Shown here one piece after another: positions 1 through 40,204 of a stretch of 64,000 nucleotides of DNA (positions are counted from its first letter, which is position 1; every line of letters begins with the position of its first letter). The stretch is taken from positions 3,342-67,341 of the forward strand of contig CAYNXY010000001.1 of assembly GCA_964401285.1 (NCBI GenBank). Direction: 5' to 3'. This DNA comes from an uncultured Candidatus Saccharibacteria bacterium. Lineage in GTDB: Bacteria > Patescibacteriota > Minisyncoccia > Minisyncoccales > CAYTKG01. The translations under genes and the position numbers were made by a program. A model generated the notes under the pieces. The model was given only the letters and a program-made list of their open reading frames with translations. It made no database searches and had not been told where the DNA came from.

Positions 1-3000
1 CTCCAGTGGACTACTGCCTCTTCTGCGGAAAAGTTAAACGAGAACTCGTTCTCCACACTCTTTTGGTTTATGAAATCGGGAATCATTTTAGGAATAATTT
101 GTTCGGTGGCAGCACTAAGCAGGAGGAGAGGGATGGTTCCTGTTGTTTTTTCCTCGATGTGGATTTTTTCCCCTGTTTTTGCCTGGTGGGCAAGCAGACC
201 TCGGCAAGAAAAAACTAAACTTAGACGAAAAGATAAAATTAAACTTCGCCGTTTGGCGCGGAAGAATTGGAGATTTTTTGATGATCTCGTTGGAGCGGAA
301 ACCAACTTTTTACCTCTCGACACTTTCCAAAATACTCCGCAAAAGAAAATAGCGTGGAAAACATCTCCTACAAATATCGGACTCTATCTTCTTTCCGCTA
401 TTTCCGCCCATAATCTCGGATACATTTCCACTCTTAAATTCTTAAATCTTTTGGAAAAAACACTTTTTGCCCTGGAAAAGCTTCAAAAATACAAAGGGCA
501 CCTTTACAATTGGTACAATATTAAAAACCTCAAAATCCTGGCTCCTCATTATATATCAAGCGTTGATAGCGGGAACCTATGTGCTTCTTTTATTGTCGTT
601 AAAAACATGCTTGAAGAGCTCATGGAGTCCCCTTTCTCGACAAATAAAATACTACCCGGCTTGAAAGATGAGTTTCAACTTCTTAAAGAAAAAATTGAAA
701 AGATTGAAAACCGGAAAAAAACTTACAAAAAACATTTAGAGCGTTTGAGTTCATCAATCAACAAAACATCCGACTCTTCTTGGCAAGAATACTTAAGAAA
801 CGTAAAACAAGAAATTATTTCCTTTCGAAGTTTCTTAACCCGGGAAATGGAAACAGCTGATACAGAAGGGGCAAGGAAAATAAAAGAGATTTATTATTGG
901 CTGGAAAAATTAAGCTCCCATACGGATGATTTCTATTATGAAAGAAATGGTTTCACAAAAGACCCTAAAAAAGCAACAGAAAGCGCTGCAAGAAGATGTG
1001 AAAACCTCTCCCAAAGATTTGACAAACTCACAGAAGAAATGGACTTTAGCTTTTTATACAACCCGGATAAAAAGCTCTTTTCTTTAGGTTTCAGGGTAGA
1101 TAAAAACGAACTGGATAATATTTATTATAATTTTCTTGGCTCAGAATCACGCCTGGCTAGTTTTGTTGCTATAGCTAAAGGCGATCTCCCTGCCAAACAT
1201 TGGTTTGGGATGGAAAGAACCTTAACCAAACTGAAAAACAAAAAAGCAGTAATTTCCTGGGGAGGATCTCTTTACGAATACCTCCTCCCCAACCTATTTT
1301 TAAAAAATTATCCCGAAACTTTACTTCATGAAACAATCGAGGTAGCTGTTAAAAAACAAATCCAATACGGAGAAAGAAAAGGAATCCCCTGGGGGCTTTC
1401 CGAAAGCGCCTATAATGCCCAAAACAAGGAGGGTTTTTATCATTACAAGGCGTTCGGGGTGCCGGACTTGGGAGTTAAATTTTCTCTGGGCAAGGAACCA
1501 GTAGTAAGCCCTTATTCCACCATGCTTGCTCTCCCCCGCTTTCCTAAAAAAGCAATTAAAAATTTAAAAACACTTAAAAAGGAAGGGCTTGAAGGCGAGT
1601 ATGGTTTTTACGACGCAATAGATTACACTCCTCAAAGAATGCCTGCCGGGAAACGAGGGGTGGTTATCCCCACTTATTATGCCCACCATAAAGGTGCAAG
1701 CTTAATGGCGCTTACCGCTTCTCTTAATGACAATCCTTTTTCCAAGTATCTTTTCCGCGATTCACGTATAAAATCCGTAGAACATTTCTTGGAAGAAAAA
1801 ACTCCAAGGGAAACACCAACCCTTGAACTTCATAAGTTCAAAAAATCAAGAAAACCAAGAATAACGGAGGAAAGATTTGGGTTTTCCACCACCTATATCA
1901 CCGAACCATGTCAAGAAAACCCGAGTTCTTATTTTCTTTCCAACGGCAAATATCAAGTAATGATAGATGAGTCAGGAAGCGGATTTTCTAAATTCCAAGA
2001 TTTTTTCGTAACAAGATTCAGAAAAGACCCCACAAGAAGAGAATCAGGAACATTCTTTTATATTAAAGATCTGGACACGAAAGATATTTGGTCTTCTACT
2101 TTTCAGCCCACCAAAAAGCCACCTAAGAATTATAAAATACTTCAGCACGAAAACAAGGTGGAATTTACAAGAAAAGATGGAGGGATAGAAACCAGAACAG
2201 AAATAGTTGTAGCCCCCCGTGAAAATGCTGAAATAAGGAGGGTGACCCTAACAAACCAAAGCTCAAAAGAAAAAGAGTTAGAGATTACAAGTTACGGCAA
2301 GATAGTTATAAATGGAATGGGGCAGGACCTCACACACCCCGTATTTTCCGATATGCTTGTTTCTTCCGAGTTTCTCTCTGAAAAGAACGCTTTGCTTTTC
2401 TGCCGGCCGGAGGCTGACCAGGACACCCCTCTTTGGGCGACCCACATTATAACTGAACAAGAAGAACCGATTGAATTTTCTGCTGACCGAAAAAGTTTCA
2501 TTGGAAGGGGCAGAACACTTGAAAACCCAAAGGCCTTAGAGCAAAAACTCTCTGGTTCTTCTGGTTACACTCTTGACCCTATAATGAGTTTGAGGACTAC
2601 TGTTAAGCTTGCACCCGGGGAAAAGAAATCATTGGGGTTTACCACTGCTCTCTCTTTTCGTAAGGAAGAGGTTCTTTCTTTAGCAGATAAATATTCAAAA
2701 CTAAGCACTGTTGAGAGAACTATGCGGCTGGGAGAAAACTACGGGCAACTGGAGATGAGACAGCTTACCTTTTCTCCCGAGGAAAGCTTAATCTTCCAAA
2801 AACTTGCTTCTAAACTACTGTGGCCCGGGGAAAAATTAAGAAACACGGAAAAAATTAGAAAAAATAAAAAGAAAAAGGAAGACCTTTGGGGGTATTCCAT
2901 TTCCGGAGACCACCCCATTCTTCTCATCACAACTTCGAGCTTAAACGATTTGGATTACCTTCCTTTAATCCGCCAAACCATAAGAGCTCAGAAGTTCCTG

Positions 3001-5736
3001 CAAAGAAAAGGTTTTATATTTGACCTTGTTGTCTTAAATAAAGAAAGTGGGGGGTATAAAAAAGAACTGGAAGAAAGAATAGGGGCTTTAGGCGGAGACA
3101 AAATGTCAGGCGTATGGGGAGAAGAGCGAGGCGGTATTTTTATCCTAGGATCCGATTTTATACCGGAGGAAAACCAAAACCTTCTTGAAGCAATGGCCTC
3201 CGTCGTACTTGAGGGGAACAAGGGGTCCCTAAAAGAACAACTGGAACAAAAAGAAGAAGAGAGCAAAATTCCGCTTTTTTCTCCACATCAAAAGCAAATT
3301 GAGGCAAAAGTAGAATTAAAAGAACTAGTAAATACCGACGAACTAGCTTTTTACAACAACTTCGGCGGGTTCGACGAAGAAAAAGAAGAATACGTCATAA
3401 CACTGCGTCCAGACCAAAAAACTCCTGTTCCCTGGACAAACGTAATATCTAACCCCAATTTCGGCTTTGTTGTTTCCGAGTCGGGTTCTCAATTCACCTT
3501 TTGTGAAAACAGCAGGGATAACCGGCTCACACCCTGGTTTGGAGACCCCGTTCTGGATAATGCTGGCGAAGCGCTATTCGTGAAAGATGAAGAAACAGGA
3601 AAGAGCTGGTCCCCCCTAGCCTGGCCTAAAAGAGATAAAAACCCTTATCTTATTCGACACGGTAAAGGGTATGTGAAATTCAAACACAAATGTGAAGAAA
3701 TAAGTTCAGACCTTACGCTATTTGTCCCCCGCAGAGACCCGGTAAAAATTGTACGCTTTAAAGTTAAAAATACTTCTTCAAAAGAAAGAAAAGTTTCCAT
3801 CTATTATTTCTTGGAATGGGTGTTGGGAGAACTAAGAAGTAAAACTTGGCCCCACATCGTTACAGAAATTGACGAAAAAAGTAAAGCAATAATTGCCCTC
3901 AACCCGTTAAGTGAAAGTTTTTCGGAAAGAAAAGCTTTTCTTTGGGGAGAAAACCCGACAAGCTTAACGGGAGACAGAAAAGAAATTCTCGGCCCGGGAA
4001 GAGGTTGGAGCACCCCGGCAGGCCTGGACAAAGAAACTCTCTCAGGAAAAGTCGGGGCAGGGTTTGACCCAGGAGCGGGGGTTCAAAGACGCCTCAATCT
4101 AAAACCCGATGAGGAAAAAGAAATAGTGTTTCTTTTGGGAGAAGTAAAAAGCAAAAAAGAAATCCAAGCACTGATTGAGAAATACAAAAATCACGACAAT
4201 ATAGAAAACTCGCTGAAAGAAGTGAAGAGCTATTGGGAAAAAACTACCTCAACCCTAGAGGTTGAAACCCCGGATAAGGCATTGAACGTGTTGTCAAGCT
4301 GGCTTCCTTACCAAATATTAAGCTGCAGAGTGTGGGCTAGATCATCTTTTTACCAACCCGGAGGTGCTTACGGTTTCCGCGACCAGCTGCAAGACGCGAT
4401 GGGGCTTGGGATAAACCACCCTGAAATCCTTAAAAAACACATAATCAGAGCGGCAAAAAGACAATACAGAGACGGCGGGGTTCAACATTGGTGGAAACCA
4501 GTGAGCAATTTAGGCCTGAGAAGTTCTTACACTGACGATCCGCTTTGGCTGGTCTACATTGTCTCCTACTATGTTCAGCTCACAGGAGATTACGAGTTTC
4601 TAGATAGAAGTCTCCCATTTTTGGAAAGCACCAAAGAGGGCTACCCCGAAAGCGAAACAATGGAAACTGCCACGCTATCTTCCGATAAAGCAAGCTTATT
4701 TGAACATTGCATGAGAGCAATAGAAAAAACCTTTGACCTTGGAGCACACGGTCTGCCAAAAATGAAAGGGGGTGACTGGAATGACGGAATGAATAAAGTA
4801 GGAGTAGAAGGACAGGGAGAAAGTATTTGGCTGGCTTGGTTTGAAATAAAAGTGTTGGAAGAGTTCTCCGAGGCAGCAAAGAAAAAAGGAGAAAAAGAAG
4901 CTTGGAGAGAACTAAACTCCAAAATAAAGAAACTCAAAAAAGAAGTGGAAAGAACCGGTTGGGACGGAGAATGGTACAGACGAGCTTATTTTGACGATGG
5001 CACACCTTTGGGCTCAAAAGAAAACAGAGAATGTAAGATCACTCTTACCCCTCAGGCCTGGGCGTTTATCTCCGGCGGTAAAGATAAAAAGCGACTCGAA
5101 GCAGCTCAAGTTTCTTGCGAAAAGTACCTGGTAGATGAAAATGAAAAATTAATTAACCTGCTCTGGCCTCCTTTTAAAAACCCCGAGCGCGACCCCGGCT
5201 ACATTAAAAACTATCCACCAGGCGTTAGAGAAAATGGAGCTTGCTACCTGCACGCAGCAATGTTTTATATTTTAGGCCTCATCAATCAAAAGAAAAAAGA
5301 CAGAGCTTGGGAGCTTTTCAGCTGGTTCAACCCAATAAAAAGAAGTTCTACCTCGAAACAAGTTGAAAAATACAAAGTTGAACCCTACATCTTGCCCAGC
5401 GACATTTATGCTTCTCTATCTCCCGGAGCAGGAGGATGGAGTTGGTATACAGGCACCGCTGCTTGGGTCTGGAGAATAACAGCTGAGTTCATATTAGGTT
5501 TAAAGATACGAGGAGAATACTTTATGGTTGAACCCTGCCTACCTTCTTCTTGGCCGGGATACAAAATGACCCTCAGGCATGGTTCTGATACTTACGAGAT
5601 TACAGTTCAAAATTCGAAAGAAGAGGGCAAAGGAAAAAGAATAAAACTGGACAATAAAAAAATAGAAGGCGAAAGAATCGCCTTCCAAAACGACGGCAAA
5701 CGGCATAAAGTAGAAGTTTTCTTAAAAAAAGAGTAA
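1..5736 (+). CDS. Cyclic beta-1,2-glucan synthase (NdvB/ChvB/Cgs)-like giant protein with tandem GH94 glycoside-phosphorylase modules; 5'-partial. The ORF track starts at 70, but the frame is open to nt 1.
   Basis: The same frame as the 70..5736 ORF has no stop from nt 1, so the gene continues upstream of the window. Motifs match the NdvB post-glycosyltransferase region: WRFFDDLV...NFLPLDTFQ...TSPTNIGLYLLS and SESRLASFVAIAKGDLP. There are two GH94 N-terminal beta-sandwich signatures (GKYQVMIDESGSGFS; PWTNVISNPNFGFVVSESGSQFTFCENSRDNRLTPW). The GH94 catalytic (alpha/alpha)6 motif FYQPGGAYGFRDQLQDAMG is present. A TM helix lies at the start of the visible part. Confidence 0.7.
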   Translation, partial: LQWTTASSAEKLNENSFSTLFWFMKSGIILGIICSVAALSRRRGMVPVVFSSMWIFSPVFAWWASRPRQEKTKLRRKDKIKLRRLARKNWRFFDDLVGAETNFLPLDTFQNTPQKKIAWKTSPTNIGLYLLSAISAHNLGYISTLKFLNLLEKTLFALEKLQKYKGHLYNWYNIKNLKILAPHYISSVDSGNLCASFIVVKNMLEELMESPFSTNKILPGLKDEFQLLKEKIEKIENRKKTYKKHLERLSSSINKTSDSSWQEYLRNVKQEIISFRSFLTREMETADTEGARKIKEIYYWLEKLSSHTDDFYYERNGFTKDPKKATESAARRCENLSQRFDKLTEEMDFSFLYNPDKKLFSLGFRVDKNELDNIYYNFLGSESRLASFVAIAKGDLPAKHWFGMERTLTKLKNKKAVISWGGSLYEYLLPNLFLKNYPETLLHETIEVAVKKQIQYGERKGIPWGLSESAYNAQNKEGFYHYKAFGVPDLGVKFSLGKEPVVSPYSTMLALPRFPKKAIKNLKTLKKEGLEGEYGFYDAIDYTPQRMPAGKRGVVIPTYYAHHKGASLMALTASLNDNPFSKYLFRDSRIKSVEHFLEEKTPRETPTLELHKFKKSRKPRITEERFGFSTTYITEPCQENPSSYFLSNGKYQVMIDESGSGFSKFQDFFVTRFRKDPTRRESGTFFYIKDLDTKDIWSSTFQPTKKPPKNYKILQHENKVEFTRKDGGIETRTEIVVAPRENAEIRRVTLTNQSSKEKELEITSYGKIVINGMGQDLTHPVFSDMLVSSEFLSEKNALLFCRPEADQDTPLWATHIITEQEEPIEFSADRKSFIGRGRTLENPKALEQKLSGSSGYTLDPIMSLRTTVKLAPGEKKSLGFTTALSFRKEEVLSLADKYSKLSTVERTMRLGENYGQLEMRQLTFSPEESLIFQKLASKLLWPGEKLRNTEKIRKNKKKKEDLWGYSISGDHPILLITTSSLNDLDYLPLIRQTIRAQKFLQRKGFIFDLVVLNKESGGYKKELEERIGALGGDKMSGVWGEERGGIFILGSDFIPEENQNLLEAMASVVLEGNKGSLKEQLEQKEEESKIPLFSPHQKQIEAKVELKELVNTDELAFYNNFGGFDEEKEEYVITLRPDQKTPVPWTNVISNPNFGFVVSESGSQFTFCENSRDNRLTPWFGDPVLDNAGEALFVKDEETGKSWSPLAWPKRDKNPYLIRHGKGYVKFKHKCEEISSDLTLFVPRRDPVKIVRFKVKNTSSKERKVSIYYFLEWVLGELRSKTWPHIVTEIDEKSKAIIALNPLSESFSERKAFLWGENPTSLTGDRKEILGPGRGWSTPAGLDKETLSGKVGAGFDPGAGVQRRLNLKPDEEKEIVFLLGEVKSKKEIQALIEKYKNHDNIENSLKEVKSYWEKTTSTLEVETPDKALNVLSSWLPYQILSCRVWARSSFYQPGGAYGFRDQLQDAMGLGINHPEILKKHIIRAAKRQYRDGGVQHWWKPVSNLGLRSSYTDDPLWLVYIVSYYVQLTGDYEFLDRSLPFLESTKEGYPESETMETATLSSDKASLFEHCMRAIEKTFDLGAHGLPKMKGGDWNDGMNKVGVEGQGESIWLAWFEIKVLEEFSEAAKKKGEKEAWRELNSKIKKLKKEVERTGWDGEWYRRAYFDDGTPLGSKENRECKITLTPQAWAFISGGKDKKRLEAAQVSCEKYLVDENEKLINLLWPPFKNPERDPGYIKNYPPGVRENGACYLHAAMFYILGLINQKKKDRAWELFSWFNPIKRSSTSKQVEKYKVEPYILPSDIYASLSPGAGGWSWYTGTAAWVWRITAEFILGLKIRGEYFMVEPCLPSSWPGYKMTLRHGSDTYEITVQNSKEEGKGKRIKLDNKKIEGERIAFQNDGKRHKVEVFLKKE

Positions 5737-5737: not shown

Positions 5738-7045
5738 TTAAAACTCCTTGAGCTTATCTGCCTCCTCATGCTCGCGCAGTTTTTTCAGGGCGCGAGCTGC
5801 AATCTGACGTATTCTTTCTCTTGTCACCCCGAATTCCTGGCCCACCTCCTCCAAGGTGTGCTTCACCCCGTCTTCCAGGCCAAAACGCATCTCAAGAATC
5901 TTTTGCTCGCGCGGGGTTAGATCTTTCATAAGGTCTGAGAGCCGCTCTTTTAAAAGAGCACGAGTTGCTTCCTGGAGAGGGGTTGTGCTTTCCGTATCCT
6001 CGATGAACTCTTGCAAAAGGGTGTCCTGGTCTTCTCCAACCGGTGTTTCAAGCGAGATAGTACCCTTTATTATCTTTCTTATTTTTCTTACCTTAGATAA
6101 GCTTAAGCCCATCTCGGCAGCCATCTCTTCGGGTAGAGGCTCTCTCCCTAACTGTTTTCTCAACCTTCTTTGTTCTTTTGTATATTTGGAAAGTGTTTCC
6201 ACCATATGAACAGGAATTCTTATGGTCCTCGAATAGTCAGCCAAGGCTCTGGTAATCGCCTGTCTTATCCACCAGGTAGCATAAGTTGAAAATTTGTAAC
6301 CCTTTTTCCAGTCAAACTTTTCAACTGCACGAAACAGGCCCCTGTTCCCTTCTTGAATAAGGTCTAAAAAGCTAAGATAGGGAGAACGACCAATATATCT
6401 TTTAGCAATGGAAACAACCAGCCTCAAGTTCGCTTGAATCATTTTCTTTCTGGCCGCTTCTTTTTCCGCCCTATCGCCATTATTTATTTTTTTTGCAAGT
6501 TCTACCTCTTCCTTGCGAGAAAGAAGCGGGGTGCGCCCGATTTCCTTAAGATACATCTGAACCGGGTCCACCTTTCTCCTCTTCTCAATCGGACCCTCTT
6601 CTTCTTCCATTTCTAAAAATCCTCTTTTTTCTTTTATTTCCACTCCTTCTTCAGCCAACCGGCTGTAAAGCTTCTCCAGGCCTTCAATGTCTTTTTCCAA
6701 ATAAGAAAAGGTATTCAAAATCTCCGCCTCGGTTACAAACCCCCTGGCCCTTCCTCTTTCCACGAAATCTTCCACTTTTTCTTTTCTAAAAACTTTAGAT
6801 TTGGGCATCGAACTACCCGGCAAAGTTAAATCCAGCTCTCCCAGCGCTTCTTTTATCTCCTGCACCGATTTTTCACCAATCCCTTCTTTCTCAAGAAGGG
6901 TTTCTTCTTTTCTTCTTAAAAGTCCGGCCACTGTTTTAATATTGTTGCCCCGCAAAGCATTTTCCGTCCGAGTGGAGAGGCCGAGCTCCGTTACTGTGAT
7001 TGACTTTTTTTCTTCCAAATTCTTTTTATTCATTGATATTTTCAA
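5738..7045 (-). CDS. rpoD: RNA polymerase sigma-70 factor RpoD with an extra N-terminal alpha-CTD-like helix-hairpin-helix domain
   Basis: Region 1.2/2 ([23 protein letters not shown]), region 2.4 ([12 protein letters not shown]) and region 4 ([15 protein letters not shown]...[19 protein letters not shown]) are present. It lies immediately downstream of dnaG, the classical dnaG-rpoD arrangement. Confidence 0.9.
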
Positions 7046-12299: not shown

Positions 12300-13148
12300 T
12301 TAGCTAAAATTTTTAATCAAGTCGCTTACAAACTTGAAATCTCCGTCTCCTTCCAGCACAATGTCAAATCTTTCTTGGTACCTTTTCCTCAACTCATCCT
12401 CGTCAAAGTTTAAAAATCCAATCGTCAATAGATGTTTATGGGGGAAGCCCTCAGCCATTGCCAGATCATCCAAAGCGTCCCCTAAAAGAATAACGTTTTT
12501 TCTTTTTTTTATTGCCCGACGGGCCTCAGGGTTTTTCTTAAGAGAAGTTTCATCTTTATTAAGAGAATGGATAACAGAGCCGCGGATAGAAACCGCCTTC
12601 CCCTCTTCGTCCCAATTGAACCTATTTATCAAATAATAAATATTTGGATAATCTCTCCCCTCTTTTTTAAAGAAAAGCGGGATCGCTTCTCCGCATCCAC
12701 TTGCAGAAAGTATCACTAACGGAATATTTTTTTCATTAAGAAAATCCAAAAATTTGAGAACTCCCTTCCTGAACTCAACATTTCCGTTTTCCACAATGTC
12801 TTTTATGTCCTTCTTAGACAACCCTGATTTAATCAAAAGCTCGTTATGAGATTCCCACCAATTCTGCATTTCTTTTTTCTTTTTCGGGAGAGGGATCTTC
12901 GGATCTATCTCAATGGGGTGGAATTTATCAAATAAAGCATGAGCTTTTTCTGCATAGCCGTCAGTTAAATATTCTCCGTTTCTTAATATAGAAATAAGAG
13001 AAGGGGTTTTAACCCCGTCTCTTACCCCATAAGTAAGAGTTCTGTCAAAATCGGAGAGGATATAAAGATTTTTGTAAGTAGCACTTGCAATTTCAGATTT
13101 TAAATACTCTACTTTTTCAGGGTTAGAAATCAAAATCTTCATTTTCAA
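12300..13148 (-). CDS. HAD-superfamily pyrimidine 5'-nucleotidase of the eukaryote-type cN-III/UMPH-1 family
   Basis: HAD motif I DFDRTLT. It is strongly collinear with cytosolic 5'-nucleotidase III (IEIDP; WWESHNELLIKSGLSKKDIKDIV; PLVILSASGCGEAI; NVILLGDALDDLAMAEG). Confidence 0.7.
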   Translation of the reverse strand: MKMKILISNPEKVEYLKSEIASATYKNLYILSDFDRTLTYGVRDGVKTPSLISILRNGEYLTDGYAEKAHALFDKFHPIEIDPKIPLPKKKKEMQNWWESHNELLIKSGLSKKDIKDIVENGNVEFRKGVLKFLDFLNEKNIPLVILSASGCGEAIPLFFKKEGRDYPNIYYLINRFNWDEEGKAVSIRGSVIHSLNKDETSLKKNPEARRAIKKRKNVILLGDALDDLAMAEGFPHKHLLTIGFLNFDEDELRKRYQERFDIVLEGDGDFKFVSDLIKNFS

Positions 13149-16259: not shown

Positions 16260-18263
16260 GTGAGTAAAAATCTAAAAAAAATGCTTAACGGTACGAGAGG
16301 GGCTAAAAGTTGGTTCCAAAAACTACCAACTTTTAATCAGTGGCTGCGGTTGCCTCGAGTACTCTCAAGAGGAGAAAAAATAATATTCTTTATTCTTTTT
16401 TTAGTTTTTCTTTCCTCTGCCTCTTTTCTCCTCCGCTCTTTTTATCTTGCAAGAACAACCATCGGCCCGGCCAAAGGCGGGACACTTGAAGAGGGAATAG
16501 TCGGCCATCCCCGTTTTATAAATCCAATACTTGCCTCAAGCGACCCCGACCGTGACCTGGTGCAGCTCACCTTTTCCGGTCTGATGAAATACAATGAGAA
16601 GGGAGAAATCGTAGAAGATCTAATAGAAGAATATTATCCCCAAGAAGAGAAAGGGATATACGACGTTACACTTCGAAAAGATATTTTCTGGAGTGACGGG
16701 CAGCCAATAACCGCTCACGACGTGGTTTTCACCGTTGAAACCATTAAAAACTCATCTTATAAAAGCCCGGAAAGAACAAACTGGATTGGCGTAAACGTAA
16801 AAGCGCTTTCTGATAAAAGAATAAGGTTTGAACTTCAAAAACCCTATTTCCCCTTTAAAGAACGGCTAACGCTAAAAATAATACCTAAGCACATTTTTGA
16901 AAACGTAACAGCAAAAGAGTTTGCTCTTTCCCCTTACAATTTACAGCAGGTGATTTGCTCCGGCCCCTTTGTTATCAGCCATATTGAACAAGATGAAAAA
17001 GGGAAGATAACCGAATTGGTGCTTGTTAAAAACAAAAAGTTTTATGGGAAGGACCCCTATCTAGACAAGATTCATCTTTCCTTTTTTGATGAAGAAAAAG
17101 AGGCCTGGGATGCTCTTAACAAAGGGGTAATAGAAAGTTTTCTTATCACCGACCCCAGTAAAAATAAAGAAATAACTAAAAAAGGATTGACTATCCATAC
17201 GGCTCGTTCTCCTCGTTACTTCGGAATATTCTTTAATTTGGAAAACAATGAGCTTCTTAAAAAAGAGGGAGTAAGAAAAGCGCTCTTCTCCGTTCTTGAC
17301 AAAAAAGCAGTAAAAGAACAAGCAATCGATGGTTGGGGGGAAACAGTGCTTTCCCCAATCCTCCCTACTCTTTACGAATTTGACCTGCCGGCGCAAGAGG
17401 AGGCAGAAGATGCAATAGCTCTACTGGAAGAAGCAGGGCTTACTAAAGAAGAAGAAAAATGGGTCGTAAAACCCGAACCTGAATTTATTTTTGAAAACCG
17501 TTTAGAAAAGGGAGATGAAGGAGAGGAAGTAGAGTCCTTACAAAAATGTCTCGGTAAATGGGAAGATGTCTACCCCGACAAAGAAGTCACCGGTTACTTT
17601 GGCAGCAAAACGGAAGAGGCGGTGATTAAATTCCAGGAAAAATATAAGGAAGACATTCTAGCTCCCTGGGATTTTACGGAAGGAACAGGAATTGTTTCGG
17701 AGACGACCCGCGAAAAACTCAACGAGCTCTGCAACGAGGAAAAAGGTACTCCTGTTAAATTCACCATCAAGACCCTAAACCAGGATTTCTTGGTAAAAAC
17801 AGCTGAGGCCATAAAAAGCCAATGGGAAGAGTTTGGGGTTGAAGTAGAAGTTGAAAAGTATAAGTTCAGCCAGCTAACACTGGAGGTGATAAACGAAAGA
17901 GATTATGAAATTCTTCTTTTTGGAGAAATGCTCGGCATGATCCCGGACCCCTTCTCCTTTTGGCACTCTTCAAACATTTCTAATTCGGGGCTTAACCTTT
18001 CACTTTATAAAAACGAAGAAACAGACAAATTTTTAGAGGAAGCACGAGCAGCTGATAACTATGAGAAATTCAGAGAACAACTATTTAAATTCCAAGAACA
18101 GTTCACAAAAGACAGACCGGCCATCCTGCTTTTCAGCCCTGAACTTTCCTATGCAGTCGACAACCGAATAAAAGGAGTGGACCTCAACATCGTTGCAGGA
18201 CCTACCCAACGATTCCACAATATTGAAGAGTGGTACATTAACACAAAAAGAAGTTTCAAATAA
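16260..18263 (+). CDS. Solute-binding protein family 5 (OppA/DppA-like) with an inserted peptidoglycan-binding (PG_binding_1-like) domain; GTG start
   Basis: N-terminal signal-anchor helix and an SBP_bac_5 core (GGTLEEGIVGHPRFINPILASSDPDRDLVQLTFSGLMKY...). The inserted segment (GDEGEEVESLQKCLGKWEDVYPDKEVTGYFGSKTEEAVIKFQEKYK) matches the PGBD pattern G-x-V-x-LQ-x-L-x(n)-DG-x-FG-x-T-x-AV-x-FQ. No ABC permease or ATPase is adjacent. Confidence 0.65.
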   Translation: MSKNLKKMLNGTRGAKSWFQKLPTFNQWLRLPRVLSRGEKIIFFILFLVFLSSASFLLRSFYLARTTIGPAKGGTLEEGIVGHPRFINPILASSDPDRDLVQLTFSGLMKYNEKGEIVEDLIEEYYPQEEKGIYDVTLRKDIFWSDGQPITAHDVVFTVETIKNSSYKSPERTNWIGVNVKALSDKRIRFELQKPYFPFKERLTLKIIPKHIFENVTAKEFALSPYNLQQVICSGPFVISHIEQDEKGKITELVLVKNKKFYGKDPYLDKIHLSFFDEEKEAWDALNKGVIESFLITDPSKNKEITKKGLTIHTARSPRYFGIFFNLENNELLKKEGVRKALFSVLDKKAVKEQAIDGWGETVLSPILPTLYEFDLPAQEEAEDAIALLEEAGLTKEEEKWVVKPEPEFIFENRLEKGDEGEEVESLQKCLGKWEDVYPDKEVTGYFGSKTEEAVIKFQEKYKEDILAPWDFTEGTGIVSETTREKLNELCNEEKGTPVKFTIKTLNQDFLVKTAEAIKSQWEEFGVEVEVEKYKFSQLTLEVINERDYEILLFGEMLGMIPDPFSFWHSSNISNSGLNLSLYKNEETDKFLEEARAADNYEKFREQLFKFQEQFTKDRPAILLFSPELSYAVDNRIKGVDLNIVAGPTQRFHNIEEWYINTKRSFK

Positions 18264-18264: not shown

Positions 18265-18858
18265 ATGAAGCAAAAAACAAAAAAACCAAGTGTGAGGTTG
18301 CTAAAAGAGATGAAAAAAGTTGTTTACGATAAAAGTTTTGCGGGCAAGAATAAAAATCTTAAGCTTTATGAAGTTTATCGAAACTTGAAAAAAGACGGCA
18401 ACTTGCGCTACGATATAACGATCGTGAAACCCCAAATGCTCGGAGAAGAATTCGTAAGAACCAAAGGAAACTGCAACACCGAAGGATTCCAAGAATTATA
18501 CACCGTGCTTGAAGGAGAAGCGATATTTTTCTTGCAAAAATTCAAAAATAAAAAAGTAGAAGACGCCCTGGCTGTCAAAGTAAAGGAAGGACAATGGGTT
18601 ATTATCCCTCCCTATTATTGGGTAGTTCTCATCAACCCTTCTCGAGAAAAAACTTTGGAAACAGGGAACTGGGTTTCCAATAAAACAGAAAATAAATACA
18701 AGGAATTGGAAAAAATGGGTGGACAATGTTATTTCTACACAAAAGACGGTTGGGTAAAAAACAAAAATTATGAAAAAATTCCGGAACTAAGAACCGAGGG
18801 AGCGCTGGATAATAGACCGGAATCACTCGATTTCTTAAGAGGAGGTATTGGAAAATAA
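18265..18858 (+). CDS. Cupin-type glucose-6-phosphate isomerase (archaeal cPGI) homolog with substituted metal ligands (start moved to the internal ATG at 18265)
   Basis: Collinear with Pyrococcus cPGI. TKGNCNTEGFQELYTVLEG matches TKGHFH...AEVYVAL, and IIPPYYWVVLINPS matches YVPPYWAHRTVNIGD. The His ligands are replaced by N, N and V. The ATG at 18265 follows the upstream stop directly. Confidence 0.5.
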   Translation: MKQKTKKPSVRLLKEMKKVVYDKSFAGKNKNLKLYEVYRNLKKDGNLRYDITIVKPQMLGEEFVRTKGNCNTEGFQELYTVLEGEAIFFLQKFKNKKVEDALAVKVKEGQWVIIPPYYWVVLINPSREKTLETGNWVSNKTENKYKELEKMGGQCYFYTKDGWVKNKNYEKIPELRTEGALDNRPESLDFLRGGIGK

Positions 18859-18864: not shown

Positions 18865-18948
18865 GCCGCGGTGGTGGAACCGGCAGACACGTAGCGTTCA
18901 GAGCGCTATGAGCTTTGGCTCATGAGGGTTCAAATCCCTCCCGCGGCA
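18865..18948 (+). tRNA. tRNA-Leu (anticodon CAG), 84 nt, long variable arm, CCA not encoded
   Basis: Acceptor GCCGCGG/CCGCGGC plus discriminator A; anticodon stem UAGCG/CGCUA with loop UUCAGAG; T-arm GAGGG-UUCAAAU-CCCUC. Confidence 0.8.
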
Positions 18949-18973
18949 CATTAATTAACAAATAATATTAAAT

Positions 18974-20678: not shown

Positions 20679-21656
20679 ATGAAAGTTTTCAGCGGAGTCC
20701 GGCCCACAGGTAATATACACATCGGAAATTACCTTGGGGCCATAAAAAACTGGGTTGAGCTTCAAAAAAAACACGACTGTGTATTTTGCATTGTTGATTG
20801 GCATGCTCTTACGACCCCCTACGACCCGGAAAAACTGGACGATTATATCGAAGAGACAGCCCTGGCTTATCTGGGAGCCGGGATCAACCCTGAAAAAAGC
20901 ATCTTTTTCCTTCAATCCCAAGTTAAAGAACATTTAGAGCTCACTTGGCTTTTAGGCACGATCACTCCTGTTGGGGAACTTACAAGAATGACTCAGTACA
21001 AAGAGAAATCAGAAGAACTTGAAAGCCCGAAAGCAGGGCTTCTGAATTACCCCGTTCTCATGGCGGCTGACATTCTTCTCTACGACGCGGAAGGAGTACC
21101 TGTTGGAGAAGACCAGGTTCAACACGTAGAACTGACTAGAACTCTGGCCCGCAAGTTCAACAGTAGGTTCGGGAAAACACTTAGAGTCCCCAAGGCGCTC
21201 ACTCCCGAAATAGGAGCAAGGATTATGTCTCTTTCGAACCCTGAAAAAAAGATGTCCAAAAGCGGTGACCCTAAGGGCTGCATCGGTCTTTTTGAAAAAC
21301 CCGACTCCATCAAAGAAAAAGTTATGAGTGCAGTAACAGACCCCGGGCGGGAAATAAAATACAACCCAGAGAAAAAACCGGGCATCTCCAACCTAATTAC
21401 AATCTATGCCCTATTCAATAATGAAAAAATTGAAGGGGTGGAGAAAAAATTCCAAAAAGCAAACTACTCTGAATTCAAAGAAAGCTTAAACACTCTTCTT
21501 GTTGATTCTCTTGCCAAATTCAGAAAAATAAAAGAAGAAACAACAACGGAAGAAATAAAAAACACCCTCAGAAAGGGTGGCAAAAAAGCTCGCACTCTAG
21601 CCCAAAATAAAATGAGGGAAGTAAAGGGTAAAATGGGGCTTACTTGGCCTTCTTAA
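20679..21656 (+). CDS. trpS: Tryptophan--tRNA ligase
   Basis: Class I HIGH-like (TGNIHIGNYLG) and KMSKS (KMSKSGDPKG); 325 aa. Confidence 0.9.
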   Translation: MKVFSGVRPTGNIHIGNYLGAIKNWVELQKKHDCVFCIVDWHALTTPYDPEKLDDYIEETALAYLGAGINPEKSIFFLQSQVKEHLELTWLLGTITPVGELTRMTQYKEKSEELESPKAGLLNYPVLMAADILLYDAEGVPVGEDQVQHVELTRTLARKFNSRFGKTLRVPKALTPEIGARIMSLSNPEKKMSKSGDPKGCIGLFEKPDSIKEKVMSAVTDPGREIKYNPEKKPGISNLITIYALFNNEKIEGVEKKFQKANYSEFKESLNTLLVDSLAKFRKIKEETTTEEIKNTLRKGGKKARTLAQNKMREVKGKMGLTWPS

Positions 21657-23001
21657 TAAGAGTACTTACTTCTTCTTTTTTCTCTTCTAGTAATTCTTGA
21701 GATTTGGCTTCCATATTCAGACGAAGCAACGGCTCAGATTGGGAGGGACGAAGATTAAAGTGCCACTTCGGGAAGGAGACGCTTAACCCGTCTATTTTTT
21801 CTATTTTGCAGTCCTTATTTTTATAAAAATCTTCCACCGCCCCTAGAATAACTTTAGCTTCTTTTTTCCCATCAATCTCGAAGTTAGTTTCAGGAAGAAT
21901 ACAATATTCTTTTCTCAACCTGTCTAAATATTCTTCCAGCGGCTCCTCCATCTCTTCTATCGCTTCTAAAAAGTAAAGAGAAGCCAAGAGGCCGTCGTCA
22001 AGATAATAAAAGTCCCTGAACACGTAGTGGCCGGAGGTTTCACTTCCAAATACAGCATCCACCTCTTTCATCTTCTTTTTGATCTCGGGGTGCCATGTTT
22101 TCGACTTCACTACCTCTCCTCCCGCTTTTTTAATCTCGTCATCAACAACCCCCGATGTTCTTATATCTACCACAATCCTTTTCTCTTTCTTCTTTTTTAA
22201 AAGATGCTTCCCAATGATAAGAGAAATAAAACTGGGGTCGATCACCTCACCTTTGCTGTCCAGGGCATAAAACCGGTCTCCATCACCATCCCATAAAAAC
22301 CCAAGGTCTGCCTTTTCCTCTTTAACACTGGCTACAGCAAACCTTCTATTTTCTTTAATCTTCGGGTTTGCTTCGTGGTTCGGGAAAGAGCAATCCGTTT
22401 CCCAAAAAAGAGGTATTTTTTTAATTTCACTATCCTTAAAAATTTCTTCAAGATAAAGCCCCGTCATACCATTACCTGCGTCCATCACCACCTTCACGTC
22501 GGGCAATACGTTTACTTTACCTTTAAGCTCTTTGATGTAAGGAGCACGGACTTCTTTCTCGACTACCTCCCCTTCCTCTTTGCGGAAATCAACCTTTCCG
22601 TTTTCGATCATTTCTTTAATCTTATCGAGTACCTCTTTTCTGCCAAGAGGAACTGCCTTCTCGCCTACAATCTTTAATCCGTTATACTCTTCAGAAAGAT
22701 GAGAAGCAGTAACAAAAATTCCACCGTCACATTTAAAATGAACAACAGAAAAATAAAAAGCGGGGGTTGAAGCAAGGTCAATATCAATAACCTTCTTTCC
22801 GGTTTCCTTAAGCCCCCGCACCAGGGACTCTTTAAGGCCAGAGGAAGAAGATCGGGCATCCCTTCCTACAACTATCTTTTTCTTATCTTTGTAAAACAAA
22901 CCGAAAGCACGGGCCACAAGATAAACCGTTCTTTCATTTATGTCTTGAGGAAAATGCCCTCTTACATCGTATTTTTTAAATATATCCGGATTTATTCTCA
23001 T
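21640..23001 (-). CDS. Phosphomannomutase/phosphoglucomutase (alpha-D-phosphohexomutase family). The start is trimmed to the internal Met, since the ORF-track start at 23076 would overlap ychF divergently by 34 nt.
   Basis: Active-site loop TASHLSEEYNGLK (a variant of TASHNP.EYNG), metal-binding DGDGDR and sugar-binding GSETSGHYVF. The MRINPDIFKKYDVRG start matches the family N-terminus. Confidence 0.8.
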   Translation of the reverse strand: MRINPDIFKKYDVRGHFPQDINERTVYLVARAFGLFYKDKKKIVVGRDARSSSSGLKESLVRGLKETGKKVIDIDLASTPAFYFSVVHFKCDGGIFVTASHLSEEYNGLKIVGEKAVPLGRKEVLDKIKEMIENGKVDFRKEEGEVVEKEVRAPYIKELKGKVNVLPDVKVVMDAGNGMTGLYLEEIFKDSEIKKIPLFWETDCSFPNHEANPKIKENRRFAVASVKEEKADLGFLWDGDGDRFYALDSKGEVIDPSFISLIIGKHLLKKKKEKRIVVDIRTSGVVDDEIKKAGGEVVKSKTWHPEIKKKMKEVDAVFGSETSGHYVFRDFYYLDDGLLASLYFLEAIEEMEEPLEEYLDRLRKEYCILPETNFEIDGKKEAKVILGAVEDFYKNKDCKIEKIDGLSVSFPKWHFNLRPSQSEPLLRLNMEAKSQELLEEKKEEVSTLIKKAK

Positions 23002-23042
23002 TTCTACTTGAATTAGTAACAAGTTTATTATAGCATAATTTA

Positions 23043-24071
23043 ATGGCTTTTTCAGTTGGTTTAATTGGCTTTCCAAATGCTGGAAAGTCCACTTTATTTA
23101 AAGCGCTCACCAAAAGAGAGGTCCGCATTGAACCTCGGCCTTTTAGTACAGTGGAGCCAAACGTCGGGGTTGTCCCCGTACCGGACGAGCGTTTTGAAAG
23201 AATTACAAAAATCGTAAACCCGGGGAAGAAAACCCCGGCCACAATAGAATTTTGGGATATTGCCGGCTTGGTAAAAGAAGCGCACAAAGGCGAAGGGTTG
23301 GGAAACCAGTTCCTTGCTCAAATAAGAAACTGTTCCGCTTTGGTAGAAGTTATAAGATGTTTTGAAAGCAAAAACGTAGCCCACGTTGAAACAAGCGTTG
23401 ACCCCGAAAGAGACCTGGAAATCATAAAAACTGAACTTGTCATGAAGGACTTACAAACCGTAAACAACGCTTTATCCAAAATAGAGAACGAAAAAAGCAA
23501 TAAAAAAAATCCAGAAAGAAAAGCCATTCTTAAAAAAATCCAAAACACCTTAGAGAGAGGAAAAAGTATTTCCGAGATAAAGATTGAAAACAAAGAGCTT
23601 ATAAAAGAATATCAATTCCTTACTCAAAAACCGATTGTCTATCTTTTAAACACTGACGATGAAAACGCGGTTTTTAGAAAAAAGGTATCTCCAGTTCTTC
23701 GAGCCAATTTGCAGATTGAAGCAGAAATGACAGAGCTTTCTCCAAAAGAAAAGGAAGAACTGGGGCTTAAAAGTATTTTGCCCAAACTCATTACCTCTTG
23801 CCACAAAGTATTAGATTTGATAACATTTTACACGATAAAAGGAGGGGAAGAAGCACGAGCTTGGCCTCTAAAAAAGGGACAAACAGTAATTGAGGCCGCG
23901 GATAAGGTTCATTCTGACTTTAAAGAAAACTTCATACGGGCCGAGGTTATAAGTGGAGAAAAGTTAATAGCGCTCGGCGGGTGGACAGAAGCAAAAAATG
24001 AAGGTCAGATTAAAACTGCCGGTCGGGATTATATTGTAAAAGACGGAGACATAATAGAATTTAAAATATGA
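23043..24071 (+). CDS. ychF: Ribosome-binding ATPase YchF (Obg family GTPase with TGS domain)
   Basis: G1 GLIGFPNAGKSTLF, G3 DIAGLV and a C-terminal TGS (FYTIKGGEEARAWPLKKGQTVIEAADKVHSDFKENFIRAEVI). Confidence 0.9.
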   Translation: MAFSVGLIGFPNAGKSTLFKALTKREVRIEPRPFSTVEPNVGVVPVPDERFERITKIVNPGKKTPATIEFWDIAGLVKEAHKGEGLGNQFLAQIRNCSALVEVIRCFESKNVAHVETSVDPERDLEIIKTELVMKDLQTVNNALSKIENEKSNKKNPERKAILKKIQNTLERGKSISEIKIENKELIKEYQFLTQKPIVYLLNTDDENAVFRKKVSPVLRANLQIEAEMTELSPKEKEELGLKSILPKLITSCHKVLDLITFYTIKGGEEARAWPLKKGQTVIEAADKVHSDFKENFIRAEVISGEKLIALGGWTEAKNEGQIKTAGRDYIVKDGDIIEFKI

Positions 24072-35716: not shown

Positions 35717-38098
35717 TCAACCCTCTTCTTGCTCCTCAGATAACGCCACGATGGTTTTCATCACTACGTCAGGATTAAGAGAAATAGAATCAATCCCCTC
35801 TTTCACTAGAAACCGGGCGAATTCGGGGAAATCACTCGGCGCCTGCCCGCAGATGCCCGAATATTTTCCTCTTTTTTTACATTCCTGCACCGCCCTTGCC
35901 ACCATTTTTTTTACTGCCTCGTTTCTCTCGTCCGCTTTCTCGGCCAGTTTGGTATTATCCCTGTCTATCCCCAGCGTCAACTGCGTCAAATCATTGGACC
36001 CGATGGAATAACCGTCAAATGTCTCTAAAAAACGAGCTGCCGACTCCACATTGGAAGGGATTTCACACATCAAATAAACATTCAACTCATTTTCACCCCG
36101 TTTCAAACCAAAACCTGCCATAAGTTCCAAAACCTCTCTCCCCTCTTCCACCGTACGACAAAAAGGAATCATTACCGATATATTCTTTAACCCGAAAACA
36201 TCACGAGCCCTTTTAATCGCCTCACATTCCATTTCAAAAGCGGGTTGAAAACTTTCATCAAGATAGCGTGCAGCACCCCTAAACCCCAACATGGGGTTGG
36301 ATTCCTGGTCTTCAAAAAGCTCTCCACCTATCAAGTTTTCATACTCATTAGTTTTGAAATCGGAAAAACGAACAATCACCTCGCGCGGGTAAAAGGCGGC
36401 TCCAATCTGAGCCATTCCTTCAGCCAGTTCTTTAACAAAATATTCTTTCTTGTCCTTATGCTCTACGGTTAGCTCTTTTATTTTTTCTTTTACTTCCTGG
36501 TCCTCAAGTTCTTCGTAATGGTAAAGCGCCAAGGGGTGAACCCTTATCTTTTCTGCGATTATAAACTCCTCGCGGGCCAACCCTACCCCGCTTACAGGCA
36601 GAAAAGAGGTGTGGAAAGCAACCTCGGGGGCCCCGATATTAACCATAATTTTTGTCTCAAGCTCTGGAATTTTTTCCAAATTATACTCTTCCACTTCGTA
36701 AGAAACCTCTCCTTTAAAAATCCGACCGGAAAGCCCCTGAGTGCAATCCACCGTTACTTCGTCCCCCGTTTTAAGCATCTCTGTCCCTTTTCTCGTCCCC
36801 ACAATGCAGGGAACACCCAGTTCTCTTGAAACAATTGCCGCATGGCATGTTTTGCTGCCTTCATTCGTAATGATAGCCGAAGCCATTCTCATCACCGGTA
36901 CCCAGTCGGGGTCCGTCATCTCCGTTACCAAAACCTCCCCTTTCTTAAACTGAGAAATCTTGGAAACGTCAGAAATAACATGCACCTTACCCTGTCCAAT
37001 TTTGTTGCCGATGGCAATTCCTTCTAAAATCGGGTCTTCGCTGGTTTGAAGGTGGTATTCCTTGTAGGACCTTCCCTTTTTGGGGGCGTGAACGGTTTCC
37101 GGTCTTGACTGAACGATGAAAAGCTTCCCTGTTTCTCCATCCTTCGCCCATTCCACGTCCTGCGGACGGCCGTAACGCTCTTCAATAGCCATCCCCCAGC
37201 GCGCTAAGGTTAAGGCCTCTTCGTCGGTTAATGAAAACTCTCTTTCTTTCTCCCCCGACACCCCCACTTCTTTCAATCCGCCTTTTTTAGCATAAACAAG
37301 CTTTTTGTCTTTGCGACCCAAATCTTTACGAATAATACTTTTATACCCTTCTTCCAATGTGGGTTTAAAAACATAAAACTCGTCCGCCGTTATCTTCCCC
37401 TTGACAATCATTTCTCCAACCCCCCAGATGGAATTAATAAGAACCACATTGCTAAACCCCGTTTCCGTATCTATCGTGAACATCACCCCGGAAGAAGCAA
37501 GATCCGAACGAACCATTTTTTGCACACCGATAGAAAGGGCAAACTCCAAGTGGTCAATGCCTTTTTCTTCTCTGTAAGCTATTACCCTGTCTCCAAAAGA
37601 AGAAGCAAGACATTCTTTAAGAGCTTTCAAAAGCTCTTTTTTGCCCGAAACATTTAAAAACGTCTCAAACTGGCCGGCAAAAGAATCCTCGGGAGCATCC
37701 TCAGCCACCCCGGAGGAGCGAACAGCAACACTGACTTCTTTTTTCCCGTATCTTTCACTCAGCTCTTCATAATATTCTCCCACCTGCTCTTTTAATTCTT
37801 CCGGAAACTTTGCTTTACTTATAAGACGGCGGGCTTTCTTGCCGACGATCTGCAAACTTTTTATGCTGTCCGGGTTAAAATCTTTAAAAACTTTTTCCAA
37901 CTTCGGAGCAAGCTCGTTTTCTTTTATAAAAAACCAGTATGCTTTGGTGGTTAAGGCAAATCCTCCCGGAACGGAGACCCCCTTACTGGAAAGAGCGGCA
38001 ATCATTTCCCCTAAAGAAGCGTTCTTACCCCCCACAAGAGGAATGTCTTTTTTATCAACCTCGCCAAATTTTAAAACGTATTTATCTTTCTTACTCAT
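35717..38098 (-). CDS. ppsA: Phosphoenolpyruvate synthase (pyruvate, water dikinase)
   Basis: 793 aa with an N-terminal PPDK_N nucleotide-binding domain, a phospho-His domain (GSKTCHAAIVSRELGVPCIVG) and a C-terminal PEP-utilising TIM barrel. Confidence 0.85.
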   Translation of the reverse strand: MSKKDKYVLKFGEVDKKDIPLVGGKNASLGEMIAALSSKGVSVPGGFALTTKAYWFFIKENELAPKLEKVFKDFNPDSIKSLQIVGKKARRLISKAKFPEELKEQVGEYYEELSERYGKKEVSVAVRSSGVAEDAPEDSFAGQFETFLNVSGKKELLKALKECLASSFGDRVIAYREEKGIDHLEFALSIGVQKMVRSDLASSGVMFTIDTETGFSNVVLINSIWGVGEMIVKGKITADEFYVFKPTLEEGYKSIIRKDLGRKDKKLVYAKKGGLKEVGVSGEKEREFSLTDEEALTLARWGMAIEERYGRPQDVEWAKDGETGKLFIVQSRPETVHAPKKGRSYKEYHLQTSEDPILEGIAIGNKIGQGKVHVISDVSKISQFKKGEVLVTEMTDPDWVPVMRMASAIITNEGSKTCHAAIVSRELGVPCIVGTRKGTEMLKTGDEVTVDCTQGLSGRIFKGEVSYEVEEYNLEKIPELETKIMVNIGAPEVAFHTSFLPVSGVGLAREEFIIAEKIRVHPLALYHYEELEDQEVKEKIKELTVEHKDKKEYFVKELAEGMAQIGAAFYPREVIVRFSDFKTNEYENLIGGELFEDQESNPMLGFRGAARYLDESFQPAFEMECEAIKRARDVFGLKNISVMIPFCRTVEEGREVLELMAGFGLKRGENELNVYLMCEIPSNVESAARFLETFDGYSIGSNDLTQLTLGIDRDNTKLAEKADERNEAVKKMVARAVQECKKRGKYSGICGQAPSDFPEFARFLVKEGIDSISLNPDVVMKTIVALSEEQEEG

Positions 38099-39434: not shown

Positions 39435-39440
39435 CCCCCT

Positions 39441-39465: not shown

Positions 39466-39494
39466 TTATGCACAGTTACACGCAGGTTAAAAAG

Positions 39495-40115: not shown

Positions 40116-40204
40116 TTAGATATTATACCTTATGAGAACCTAAAACAAAAACTGAAATTAGTGAAAAATAACTCTCCTTTAAATAAAGGGCTGACTCCTA
40201 AGAA

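Follow-up and report, generated by a model that had tools for sequence, protein, structure and literature searches.

Replacement of the metal-binding histidines in a patescibacterial clade of cupin-type phosphoglucose isomerase homologues

Introduction

Cupin-type phosphoglucose isomerases (cPGIs) are described as a metal-dependent family of phosphoglucose isomerases (PGIs), and the characterised enzymes of Pyrococcus furiosus (PfPGI) and Thermococcus litoralis (TlPGI) are the closest described relatives of the protein studied here. The family reportedly carries two signatures, TX3PX3GXEX3TXGHXH…EXY and PPX3HX3N. In PfPGI, the protein supplies four ligands to the Mn/Fe ion, three histidines (His88, His90 and His136) and Glu97 through one of its carboxylate oxygens, while the other coordination positions of the ion are filled by substrate oxygens or water (PMC6627849). 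In this study, we analyzed a 64,000-nucleotide stretch (the window) of contig CAYNXY010000001.1 from an uncultured Candidatus Saccharibacteria bacterium, and focused on the open reading frame (ORF) at 18265..18858 on the forward strand. Its product belongs to the cPGI family and has none of the three histidines; we refer to this state as His-less, and to homologues that keep the histidines as His-bearing.

In the candidate phyla radiation (CPR), three PGI types are scattered across the genomes, more than one type occurring in only ~2% of them. The cupin PGI is the only type in ~15 genomes, mostly of Nealsonbacteria, and a PF06560 match at a 30.2-bit threshold was counted as PGI in that survey (Jaffe et al. 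2020). The presence of cupin PGIs in CPR is thus already known, and it is the histidine loss that we did not find reported: full-text searches, whose coverage leaves out many subscription papers, turned up no account of a cupin PGI lacking the histidines or working independently of metal.

Family assignment and metal-ligand residues

The ORF starts with ATG and encodes 197 aa followed by a stop codon. The NCBI gene call (P0001, 182 aa) begins instead at Met16, position 18310, which is 15 codons after the ATG at 18265. The longer form is backed by an N-terminal KPxIRxLxEM motif conserved among homologues; moreover, in a second assembly the identical protein has been called at 197 aa (P0257).

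An earlier note, made from the sequence letters alone, had taken the product for an archaeal-type cPGI homologue collinear with the Pyrococcus/Thermococcus enzymes through both cupin motifs. The family and the collinearity held up well. In the Pfam scan the protein matched PF06560 ("GPI") with 92.6 bits (E = 2.4e-26; curated cut-off 20.7 bits), the match spanning protein residues 30-173 and profile positions 25-181 of 182. NCBIfam gave no meaningful model match for the 197-aa protein. The conventional PGI family PF00342 and the SIS-type PGI-PMI group were matched in neither Pfam nor NCBIfam, and the fold is that of a cupin. When the protein was compared with the PDB by phmmer, cupin PGIs were its sole matches, at E-values of 4e-7 for the T. 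litoralis entry 1j3p and ~1e-6 for the P. furiosus entries 1qxj, 1x7n and 2gc0; the resulting alignments run through both motifs.

We then built an AlphaFold2 model on a 40-sequence alignment, with a mean predicted local distance difference test (pLDDT) score of 95.3 and a predicted template modelling (pTM) score of 0.91. In a Foldseek search of this model against the PDB, the top 12 matches were all PfPGI, TlPGI or an engineered derivative, with E-values down to 1.7e-13 and template modelling (TM) scores of 0.70-0.77 over ~178 aligned columns. The next matches were vicilins, with a TM score of only ~0.4. According to the model, the protein would be a single-domain cupin beta-barrel, as cPGIs are.

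The metal-binding residues were located in three alignments. The phmmer alignment places TKGNCN opposite TKGHYH/TKGHFH in motif 1, and PPYYWVVLIN opposite PPYWAHRT(I/V)N in motif 2. Two MAFFT alignments with PfPGI gave the same register. The numbering of the PfPGI sequence used in the MAFFT alignments agrees with the literature positions, and its residues 21-140 agree with those in the phmmer PDB alignment. Accordingly, the H-x-H of motif 1 is replaced by Asn69-Cys70-Asn71 (AAC TGC AAC, 18469..18477), in which Asn69 (AAC, 18469-71) stands at Pf His88 and Asn71 (AAC, 18475-77) at Pf His90, and the motif-2 histidine, Pf His136, is replaced by Val120 (GTA, 18622..18624). Glu77 (GAA, 18493..18495) corresponds to Pf Glu97 and is kept; this residue is both a metal ligand and the proposed catalytic base. 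The earlier note had made the same assignments, N-C-N for H-x-H, Val for the second-motif histidine and a retained Glu, and had proposed an alignment with characterised cPGIs as the check. In that alignment the histidine positions are not misassigned.

Of the His3-Glu site, Glu alone remains. In terms of the two signatures, the three histidines read N69, N71 and V120, and all other signature residues are there (T52, P56, G60, E62, T66, G68, E77-x-Y79, P115-P116 and N124). We would therefore place the protein as a member of a His-less variant clade inside PF06560 rather than as a canonical cPGI, because the H-x-H and PPX3H histidines, on which the description as a metal-dependent PGI family is based, are absent from its sequence.

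Distribution and phylogeny of the histidine loss

Homologues were drawn from three sources: 5.8 billion clustered proteins yielded 107, an exhaustive HMMER run over 1.84 billion representatives yielded 713 (E ≤ 1e-3), and a scan of GTDB species representatives gave 80 loci (L001-L080). The combined comparison set comprised 175 distinct sequences of about 190-200 aa, 85 of them His-less and 90 His-bearing.

In this set the close homologues fall into two groups, between which the ligand columns co-vary perfectly. Every His-less sequence (85/85) has Asn at both Pf positions 88 and 90, and at Pf position 136 these sequences have V (53), I (18), A (11), L (2) or E (1). Every His-bearing sequence (90/90) has His at all three positions. 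The equivalent of Glu97 is kept in 85/85 and 90/90, so that Glu77, the putative catalytic base, does not vary in any of the 175 sequences, patescibacterial and related, of the comparison set. Invariant in both groups are further Tyr35 (Pf Tyr52), Thr52 (Pf Thr71), Thr66 (Pf Thr85), Gly68, Tyr79 (Pf Tyr99), Asn124 (Pf Asn140), Tyr145 (Pf Tyr160), Gln91 and Trp136. Since the three substitutions recur jointly in all 85 clade members against H,H,H in all 90 sisters, chance and misalignment are excluded as explanations. A misassignment of the histidines had also been considered on its own, and it was ruled out by the agreement of HMMER, the two MAFFT runs and the fold match.

The His-less state was found in at least 20 GTDB species representatives of Patescibacteria. 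The metagenome-assembled genomes (MAGs) concerned include Nealsonbacteria (L015 and L025), Parcubacteria and members labelled "Patescibacteria group". The His-less loci include L001-L008, L012-L017, L019, L022, L025, L035 and L053; two of them lie in complete or near-complete genomes, OY969803.1 (L014; chromosome of 516,640 bp) and CAWBPO010000001.1 (L022; 538,786 bp).

With the three ligand columns masked, a neighbor-joining (NJ) tree grouped all 85 His-less sequences in one clade, whose only His-bearing member was P0036. The clade was recovered over 100 NJ bootstraps with a mean Jaccard overlap of 0.96 with the His-less set, but strict monophyly of the His-less set without P0036 was not recovered in this masked analysis. 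Identity averaged 0.60 among His-less sequences, 0.59 among His-bearing ones and 0.54 across the two groups, so the stem that separates them is short. P0036 reads H-Y-H…H, yet carries the clade-type residues R65 and W111, and it retains Cys141. It may be a transitional form and the closest surviving metal-binding relative, or it may be a reversion.

Partial ligand loss was also observed in distant PF06560 lineages. The ligand sets there include H-H-E with M/I/V/F/S at Pf position 136, H-N-E-V, Y-N-E-V and R-C-E-Y; by motif, some of these proteins keep H-x-H, and others read H-x-N…V/Y, Y-x-N…V or R-x-C…Y (P0160, P0163, P0189, P0190, P0198, P0205, P0225, P0236, P0243, P0226 and P0127). These lineages are scattered, and none is so complete or so populous as the His-less clade. 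From these sequence patterns, the cPGI metal site seems to have eroded more than once in the family.

Selective constraint and co-varying positions

To describe the constraint on the replaced residues, we compared codons in the window and in 19 His-less genome loci (n = 20). At Pf position 88, Asn is encoded by AAC in 11 and by AAT in 9; at Pf position 90, by AAC in 7 and by AAT in 13. Both codons are used at each Asn, and therefore the amino acid has been kept through synonymous turnover. The His codons of His-bearing loci are CAT/CAC, so each His-to-Asn replacement is a single C-to-A step. The change at Pf position 136 takes two nucleotide steps, in agreement with the V/I/A/L variety seen there.

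The two groups are alike in their overall constraint. The entropy per column averages 1.23 bits for the His-less group vs 1.27 bits for the His-bearing group, the number of invariant columns is 22 vs 18, and the per-site conservation profiles correlate with a Spearman rho of 0.74. These comparisons of aligned sequences indicate that purifying selection on the His-less clade is not relaxed relative to the His-bearing group. With amino-acid identities of 50-75%, synonymous sites are saturated. Of the columns with a conservation of 95% or more among His-bearing sequences, nearly all persist in the His-less clade, including Glu77, Tyr35, Arg39, Thr52, Glu62, Thr66, Gly68, Tyr79, Gln91, Asn124, Trp136 and Tyr145. 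Beyond the three histidines, the columns that are changed or relaxed include Thr122, two residues past the lost motif-2 histidine on the same strand. We also considered a single aberrant or decaying gene, which was ruled out by the clade-wide fixation, the synonymous turnover of the Asn codons and the unchanged constraint.

About ten positions switch together with the histidines, namely 65, 70, 72, 80, 111, 119, 133, 141, 143 and 144 in the numbering of the query protein. From the His-bearing to the His-less group, the changes are K65R, E/Y/F70 to R/C, I80T, V/S111 to W, G119 to A/W/Y, M133T, C141 to N/T, S/N143 to N (100%) and D144I. The residue equivalent to Pf His158 is N in 85/85 His-less sequences, and S or N in the His-bearing group.

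Gene neighbourhood

The ORFs flanking the cPGI gene in the window and at the 80 related loci were then clustered. Directly upstream of the cPGI-like gene lies an orphan gene for an SBP_bac_5 solute-binding protein (SBP5) with an inserted PG_binding_1 domain (16260..18263, +; Pfam E-values 2e-57 and 1.8e-7), whose stop codon falls 1 nt ahead of the cPGI ATG. Seven nucleotides past the cPGI stop, a tRNA-Leu(CAG) begins (18865..18949, +; ARAGORN). Both neighbours had been named in the earlier note, as a peptidoglycan-binding SBP and a tRNA gene. SBP5 directly precedes the cPGI gene in the window and at 73 of the 80 related loci, and in nearly all related loci tRNA-Leu(CAG) follows the cPGI gene, or the cPGI and galU genes. 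No permease or ATPase gene adjoins the SBP5/PG-binding gene, and its coupling to cPGI is common to His-less and His-bearing loci.

The third protein-coding gene downstream of the cPGI gene encodes a phosphoglucomutase/phosphomannomutase (PGM/PMM; 21640..23076, -) with the Pfam domains PGM_PMM_I-IV and an NCBIfam PMM/PGM match at 2e-106 that lies under the equivalog cut-off. The conserved block reads GroEL, GroES, holin-4-like membrane protein, SecG, SBP5/PG-binding protein, cPGI, tRNA-Leu(CAG), RNase J, TrpRS, PGM/PMM on the opposite strand, YchF, S6, SSB and RecA, and the PGM/PMM gene is part of it in 45 loci. The block is alike for His-less and His-bearing cPGI loci, and therefore the two forms are positional orthologues. 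A paralogue beside a canonical copy was considered and ruled out, with one cPGI match per locus in the same slot across the 80 loci. The histidines were thus lost in place and not in a spare paralogue. The gene is a vertically inherited bacterial (CPR) gene; the term archaeal in the earlier note is right about where the cPGI family was first described, and does not apply to the gene itself.

A galU gene stands directly after the cPGI gene in 5 His-less loci and in 13 His-bearing Patescibacteria loci. The GalU of L008 scores 322 bits on the TIGR01099 galU model (cut-off 326.8), and a sugar-nucleotide epimerase/dehydratase gene is sometimes next after it. The loci of Dehalococcoidia are without the patescibacterial block, and in 4/5 of them the His-bearing cPGI gene is followed by one for a glucose-1-phosphate nucleotidyltransferase. 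In these four MAG loci (L055, 9983..13377; L056; L057; L062), the cPGI is 47-48% identical to the query. The L055 nucleotidyltransferase scores 441 bits on the long-form RmlA model, over the cut-off, and in L055, the only annotated one of the four, trehalose-6-phosphate synthase (OtsA) comes next. This arrangement suggests a dedicated module that leads from fructose 6-phosphate (F6P) via glucose 6-phosphate (G6P) to NDP-glucose/trehalose. The cPGI gene was possibly transferred between Patescibacteria and Chloroflexota. Across two phyla, then, the cPGI family adjoins enzymes that consume G6P, glucose 1-phosphate (G1P) or NDP-glucose, which fits a PGI feeding sugar-nucleotide synthesis.

Sugar metabolism and other genes of the window

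No PF00342 or SIS-type PGI is encoded by any window ORF of 100 aa or more that has a Pfam match, four ORFs of that size being unmatched. Likewise, the PROSITE PGI signature was found neither in the window nor in 1.2 Mb of the 80 related loci, which is a small part of each genome.

Several other genes of the window concern sugar phosphates. A GalU-like sugar-1-phosphate nucleotidyltransferase is encoded at 49294..50190 (-), with a Pfam NTP_transferase domain and 35% identity (E = 2e-57) to the L008 GalU. An 1888-aa ORF at 70..5736 (+) encodes a GH94 glucan phosphorylase/synthase-like protein, in which a pair of GH94 supersandwich domains is accompanied by one GH94 catalytic and one glucoamylase-like domain. 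Such a large protein, resembling cyclic/linear beta-glucan phosphorylases or synthases, is unusual for a small CPR genome; it is possible that it serves as a G1P source or sink for the PGM/cPGI route. A cluster of lower glycolysis/gluconeogenesis and archaeal-style energy genes occupies 35717..47435 (-), and comprises a PEP synthase/PPDK-like enzyme, a two-part ADP-forming acetyl-CoA synthetase, GAPDH, enolase and an archaeal-type cofactor-independent phosphoglycerate mutase.

An ABC-3 family permease (Mn/Zn/Fe-chelate type) and its ATPase are encoded at 60584..62248 (-). The organism seems to import transition metals, and this is background for any explanation of the His-less enzyme by metal economy.

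We also noted three further genes of the window. A sigma-70 factor with regions 1.1, 1.2, 2, 3 and 4 (5738..7045, -) carries at its N-terminus a domain matching the CTD of the RNA polymerase alpha subunit (PF03118, E = 4.6e-15), an unusual fusion. At 41116..42447 (-), the N-terminal domain of prephenate dehydrogenase is fused to prephenate dehydratase, giving an enzyme of aromatic amino-acid biosynthesis in a lineage usually described as without most biosynthesis. The ORF at 12300..13148 (-) matches UMPH-1 (PF05822, a eukaryote-type pyrimidine 5'-nucleotidase) with E = 5.6e-59.

Discussion

The sequence comparisons provide good support for the view that a metalloenzyme of central metabolism has lost its metal site under continued selection. 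They point to a job that would need the cPGI substrate pocket and the catalytic Glu, and would not need the His3 metal site. The earlier note had hedged among a metal-independent or neofunctionalised enzyme and a non-catalytic binding protein; clade-wide fixation, selection, orthology and the kept base narrow this toward a working enzyme with a remodelled site. A working enzyme is favoured over a decaying or merely binding protein because of the clade-wide fixation, the purifying selection, the positional orthology and the retention of the catalytic base and the invariant residues. Our leading reading is that the protein may be a working aldose-ketose isomerase of G6P and F6P, derived from a metal-dependent cupin PGI and functioning without the His3-Glu transition-metal site. 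We would put the chances of this at about even.

If so, Glu77 would abstract the C1/C2 proton to give a cis-enediol(ate), the type of mechanism that is reportedly favoured for PfPGI. The two conserved Asn carboxamides, acting directly or via water, might polarise or stabilise O1/O2 in place of the metal, and the hydrophobic residue at Pf position 136 may fill the vacated metal pocket together with the bulky Trp111 and Ala/Trp/Tyr119. Among phosphosugar isomerases, such as conventional PGI, TIM and RpiA, it is the norm to work without metal, by means of a Glu base and neutral hydrogen-bond donors, so that metal-free chemistry based on Asn and Glu is plausible. In the cell, the enzyme could convert F6P to G6P, which would pass via G1P (by PGM) to UDP-glucose (by GalU), or it could run in reverse and bring glucan-derived G1P into glycolysis. 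The bolder version, in which a patescibacterial lineage turned its only PGI from a transition-metal-dependent enzyme into one with cofactor-free, TIM-like chemistry in a cupin barrel, is possible but on balance doubtful. Were it true, it would be a natural, clade-wide case of a metalloenzyme turned metal-independent, by which ultra-small symbionts might have adapted to a scarcity of metals or to the oxidative inactivation of Fe(II) enzymes.

Several points weigh against a working isomerase of this kind. Alanine mutants of the cPGI metal ligands are said to be inactive. In the characterised cPGIs the metal binds substrate oxygens (PMC6627849). Given this metal-substrate contact and these mutants, the loss of the histidines is expected to cripple catalysis unless it is compensated. 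Asn is also ~2 Å shorter than a His that ligates through Nε2. The ~10 co-varying positions are equally compatible with a change of substrate, and the His-less genomes may have a second PGI elsewhere, which would leave the cupin protein free to change function. Finally, synteny in streamlined genomes is largely a matter of housekeeping genes and is weak evidence on function.

The change of substrate leads to the first of the alternatives, a neofunctionalised enzyme that acts on another sugar phosphate (mannose-6-P, hexosamine-6-P or a pentose phosphate) or catalyses another proton transfer such as epimerisation. The same ~10 positions, which include the Pf His158 equivalent, 141 and 144, would be explained in this way; the neighbouring mutase scores only as PMM/PGM in general; and metal-free cupin sugar epimerases and ketoisomerases, such as RmlC and FdtA, do exist. 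However, the two forms are positional orthologues rather than paralogues, with no duplicate in the loci compared, the stem between them is short (0.54 vs 0.59-0.60 identity) and their conservation profiles are strongly correlated. The glucose-specific GalU adjoins both at similar frequency, and with a new function for the cupin protein, a genome that has no other PGI type would be left with none. We consider neofunctionalisation unlikely, although it is the least unlikely of the alternatives. Ranked next, and improbable in our view, is a PGI that is still metal-dependent but has a site for a hard cation, with Mg2+, Mn2+ or Ca2+ bound by the two Asn oxygens, Glu77, waters and substrate. Amide side chains do ligate metals in related folds, as does the Gln at the Zn site of type I phosphomannose isomerase, and Asn/Ser/Glu triads bind Mg2+ in terpene cyclases. 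Moreover, both positions hold strictly conserved Asn and not arbitrary residues, the carboxylate ligand Glu77 is kept, and the lineages with partial ligand loss suggest that changes in the ligand set are tolerated. On the other hand, the third ligand is now a non-ligating V/I/A/L, while W111 and A/W/Y119 look like the filling of a pocket rather than a rebuilt coordination sphere. From general geometry, Asn being shorter than an Nε2-bound His, the amides would fall short of the metal position.

A pseudoenzyme would need no such site, being a non-catalytic sugar-phosphate binder that serves as a sensor, regulator or structural partner in the manner of the AraC cupin domain. Three of the four metal ligands are gone, cupins have repeatedly turned into non-enzymatic binders, and the tight coupling to the orphan SBP5/PG-binding gene (1-nt gap; 73 loci) might hint at a non-metabolic role. 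That coupling, however, is equally conserved for the His-bearing orthologues. Conservation is 100% for the catalytic Glu and the remaining family-invariant residues, the constraint is not relaxed, and the 197-aa protein consists of a single domain, with none for DNA binding or any other output. We hold this to be slightly less likely again than a hard-cation site. The bare loss of the histidines, with nothing further, could come from an artefact or from decay, that is, a misaligned motif, a sequencing error or a drifting pseudogene. This is excluded, as HMMER, MAFFT and the structure-based match give the same register, and independent assemblies provide 85 distinct sequences in which the ORF is intact, with turnover of the Asn codons and constraint equal to that of the His-bearing group.

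The finding has a direct bearing on metabolic reconstructions of CPR, in which any PF06560 match is taken as a PGI. About half of the close patescibacterial homologues that we recovered lack the metal site that defines characterised cPGIs. The interconversion of G6P and F6P in those genomes is therefore open to question, and with it the carbon flow that is predicted between glycolysis and the metabolism of glucan and UDP-glucose. An active protein would make the clade a natural experiment in metal shedding, with 85 His-less and 90 His-bearing sequences, ~10 co-varying positions and a candidate intermediate (P0036). If it is inactive or repurposed, a conserved pseudoenzyme in the housekeeping block of minimal genomes would itself need explanation.

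Comparison with known systems

Among more remote systems, RmlC/FdtA and the arabinose-binding domain of AraC are metal-free cupins that catalyse proton transfer on sugars or bind sugars. They differ from the His-less protein in that they have no sequence relationship to it detectable with Pfam or NCBIfam, and in their substrates, which are NDP-sugars or free sugars. Type I phosphomannose isomerase is likewise a cupin aldose-ketose isomerase acting on hexose 6-phosphate. It is a Zn2+ enzyme, the metal site of which includes a carboxamide (Gln) ligand, but it belongs to another cupin family that Pfam does not match here, and it has two His ligands and Zn. The likeness to conventional PGI (PF00342) and TIM is one of functional analogy only, the folds being unrelated, with no homology. 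In both, a Glu base works without metal, and the cis-enediol(ate) is stabilised by hydrogen-bond donors that are neutral or cationic, in TIM by Asn10, His95 and Lys12.

The characterised cPGIs of P. furiosus and T. litoralis (PF06560, EC 5.3.1.9; PDB 1x82, 1qxj, 2gc0 and 1j3p) share the fold of the His-less protein (TM 0.73-0.77), the Pfam family, both collinear cupin motifs and the Glu base/ligand. The equivalents of Tyr52, Thr71, Thr85, Gly87, Tyr99, Asn140 and Tyr160 are kept as well. Unlike these enzymes, to which it is only 23-25% identical, the protein has no His3-Glu site and has Asn at the Pf His158 equivalent. Its spacer from motif 1 to Glu is one residue shorter and its C-terminal extension is ~25 residues long, both features being found in the bacterial His-bearing orthologues too.

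These orthologues, from Patescibacteria (for example L009-L011, L020, P0054 and P0036, with L011 from Nealsonbacteria RBG_13_36_15) and Dehalococcoidia (L055-L057), have 45-65% identity and the same length. They occupy the same slot between the SBP5 gene and tRNA-Leu/RNase J, occasionally with a GalU neighbour, and they represent the family that was counted as CPR cupin PGI (Jaffe et al. 2020). They differ from the His-less clade in that H-x-H…H is kept and ~10 further positions are systematically different.

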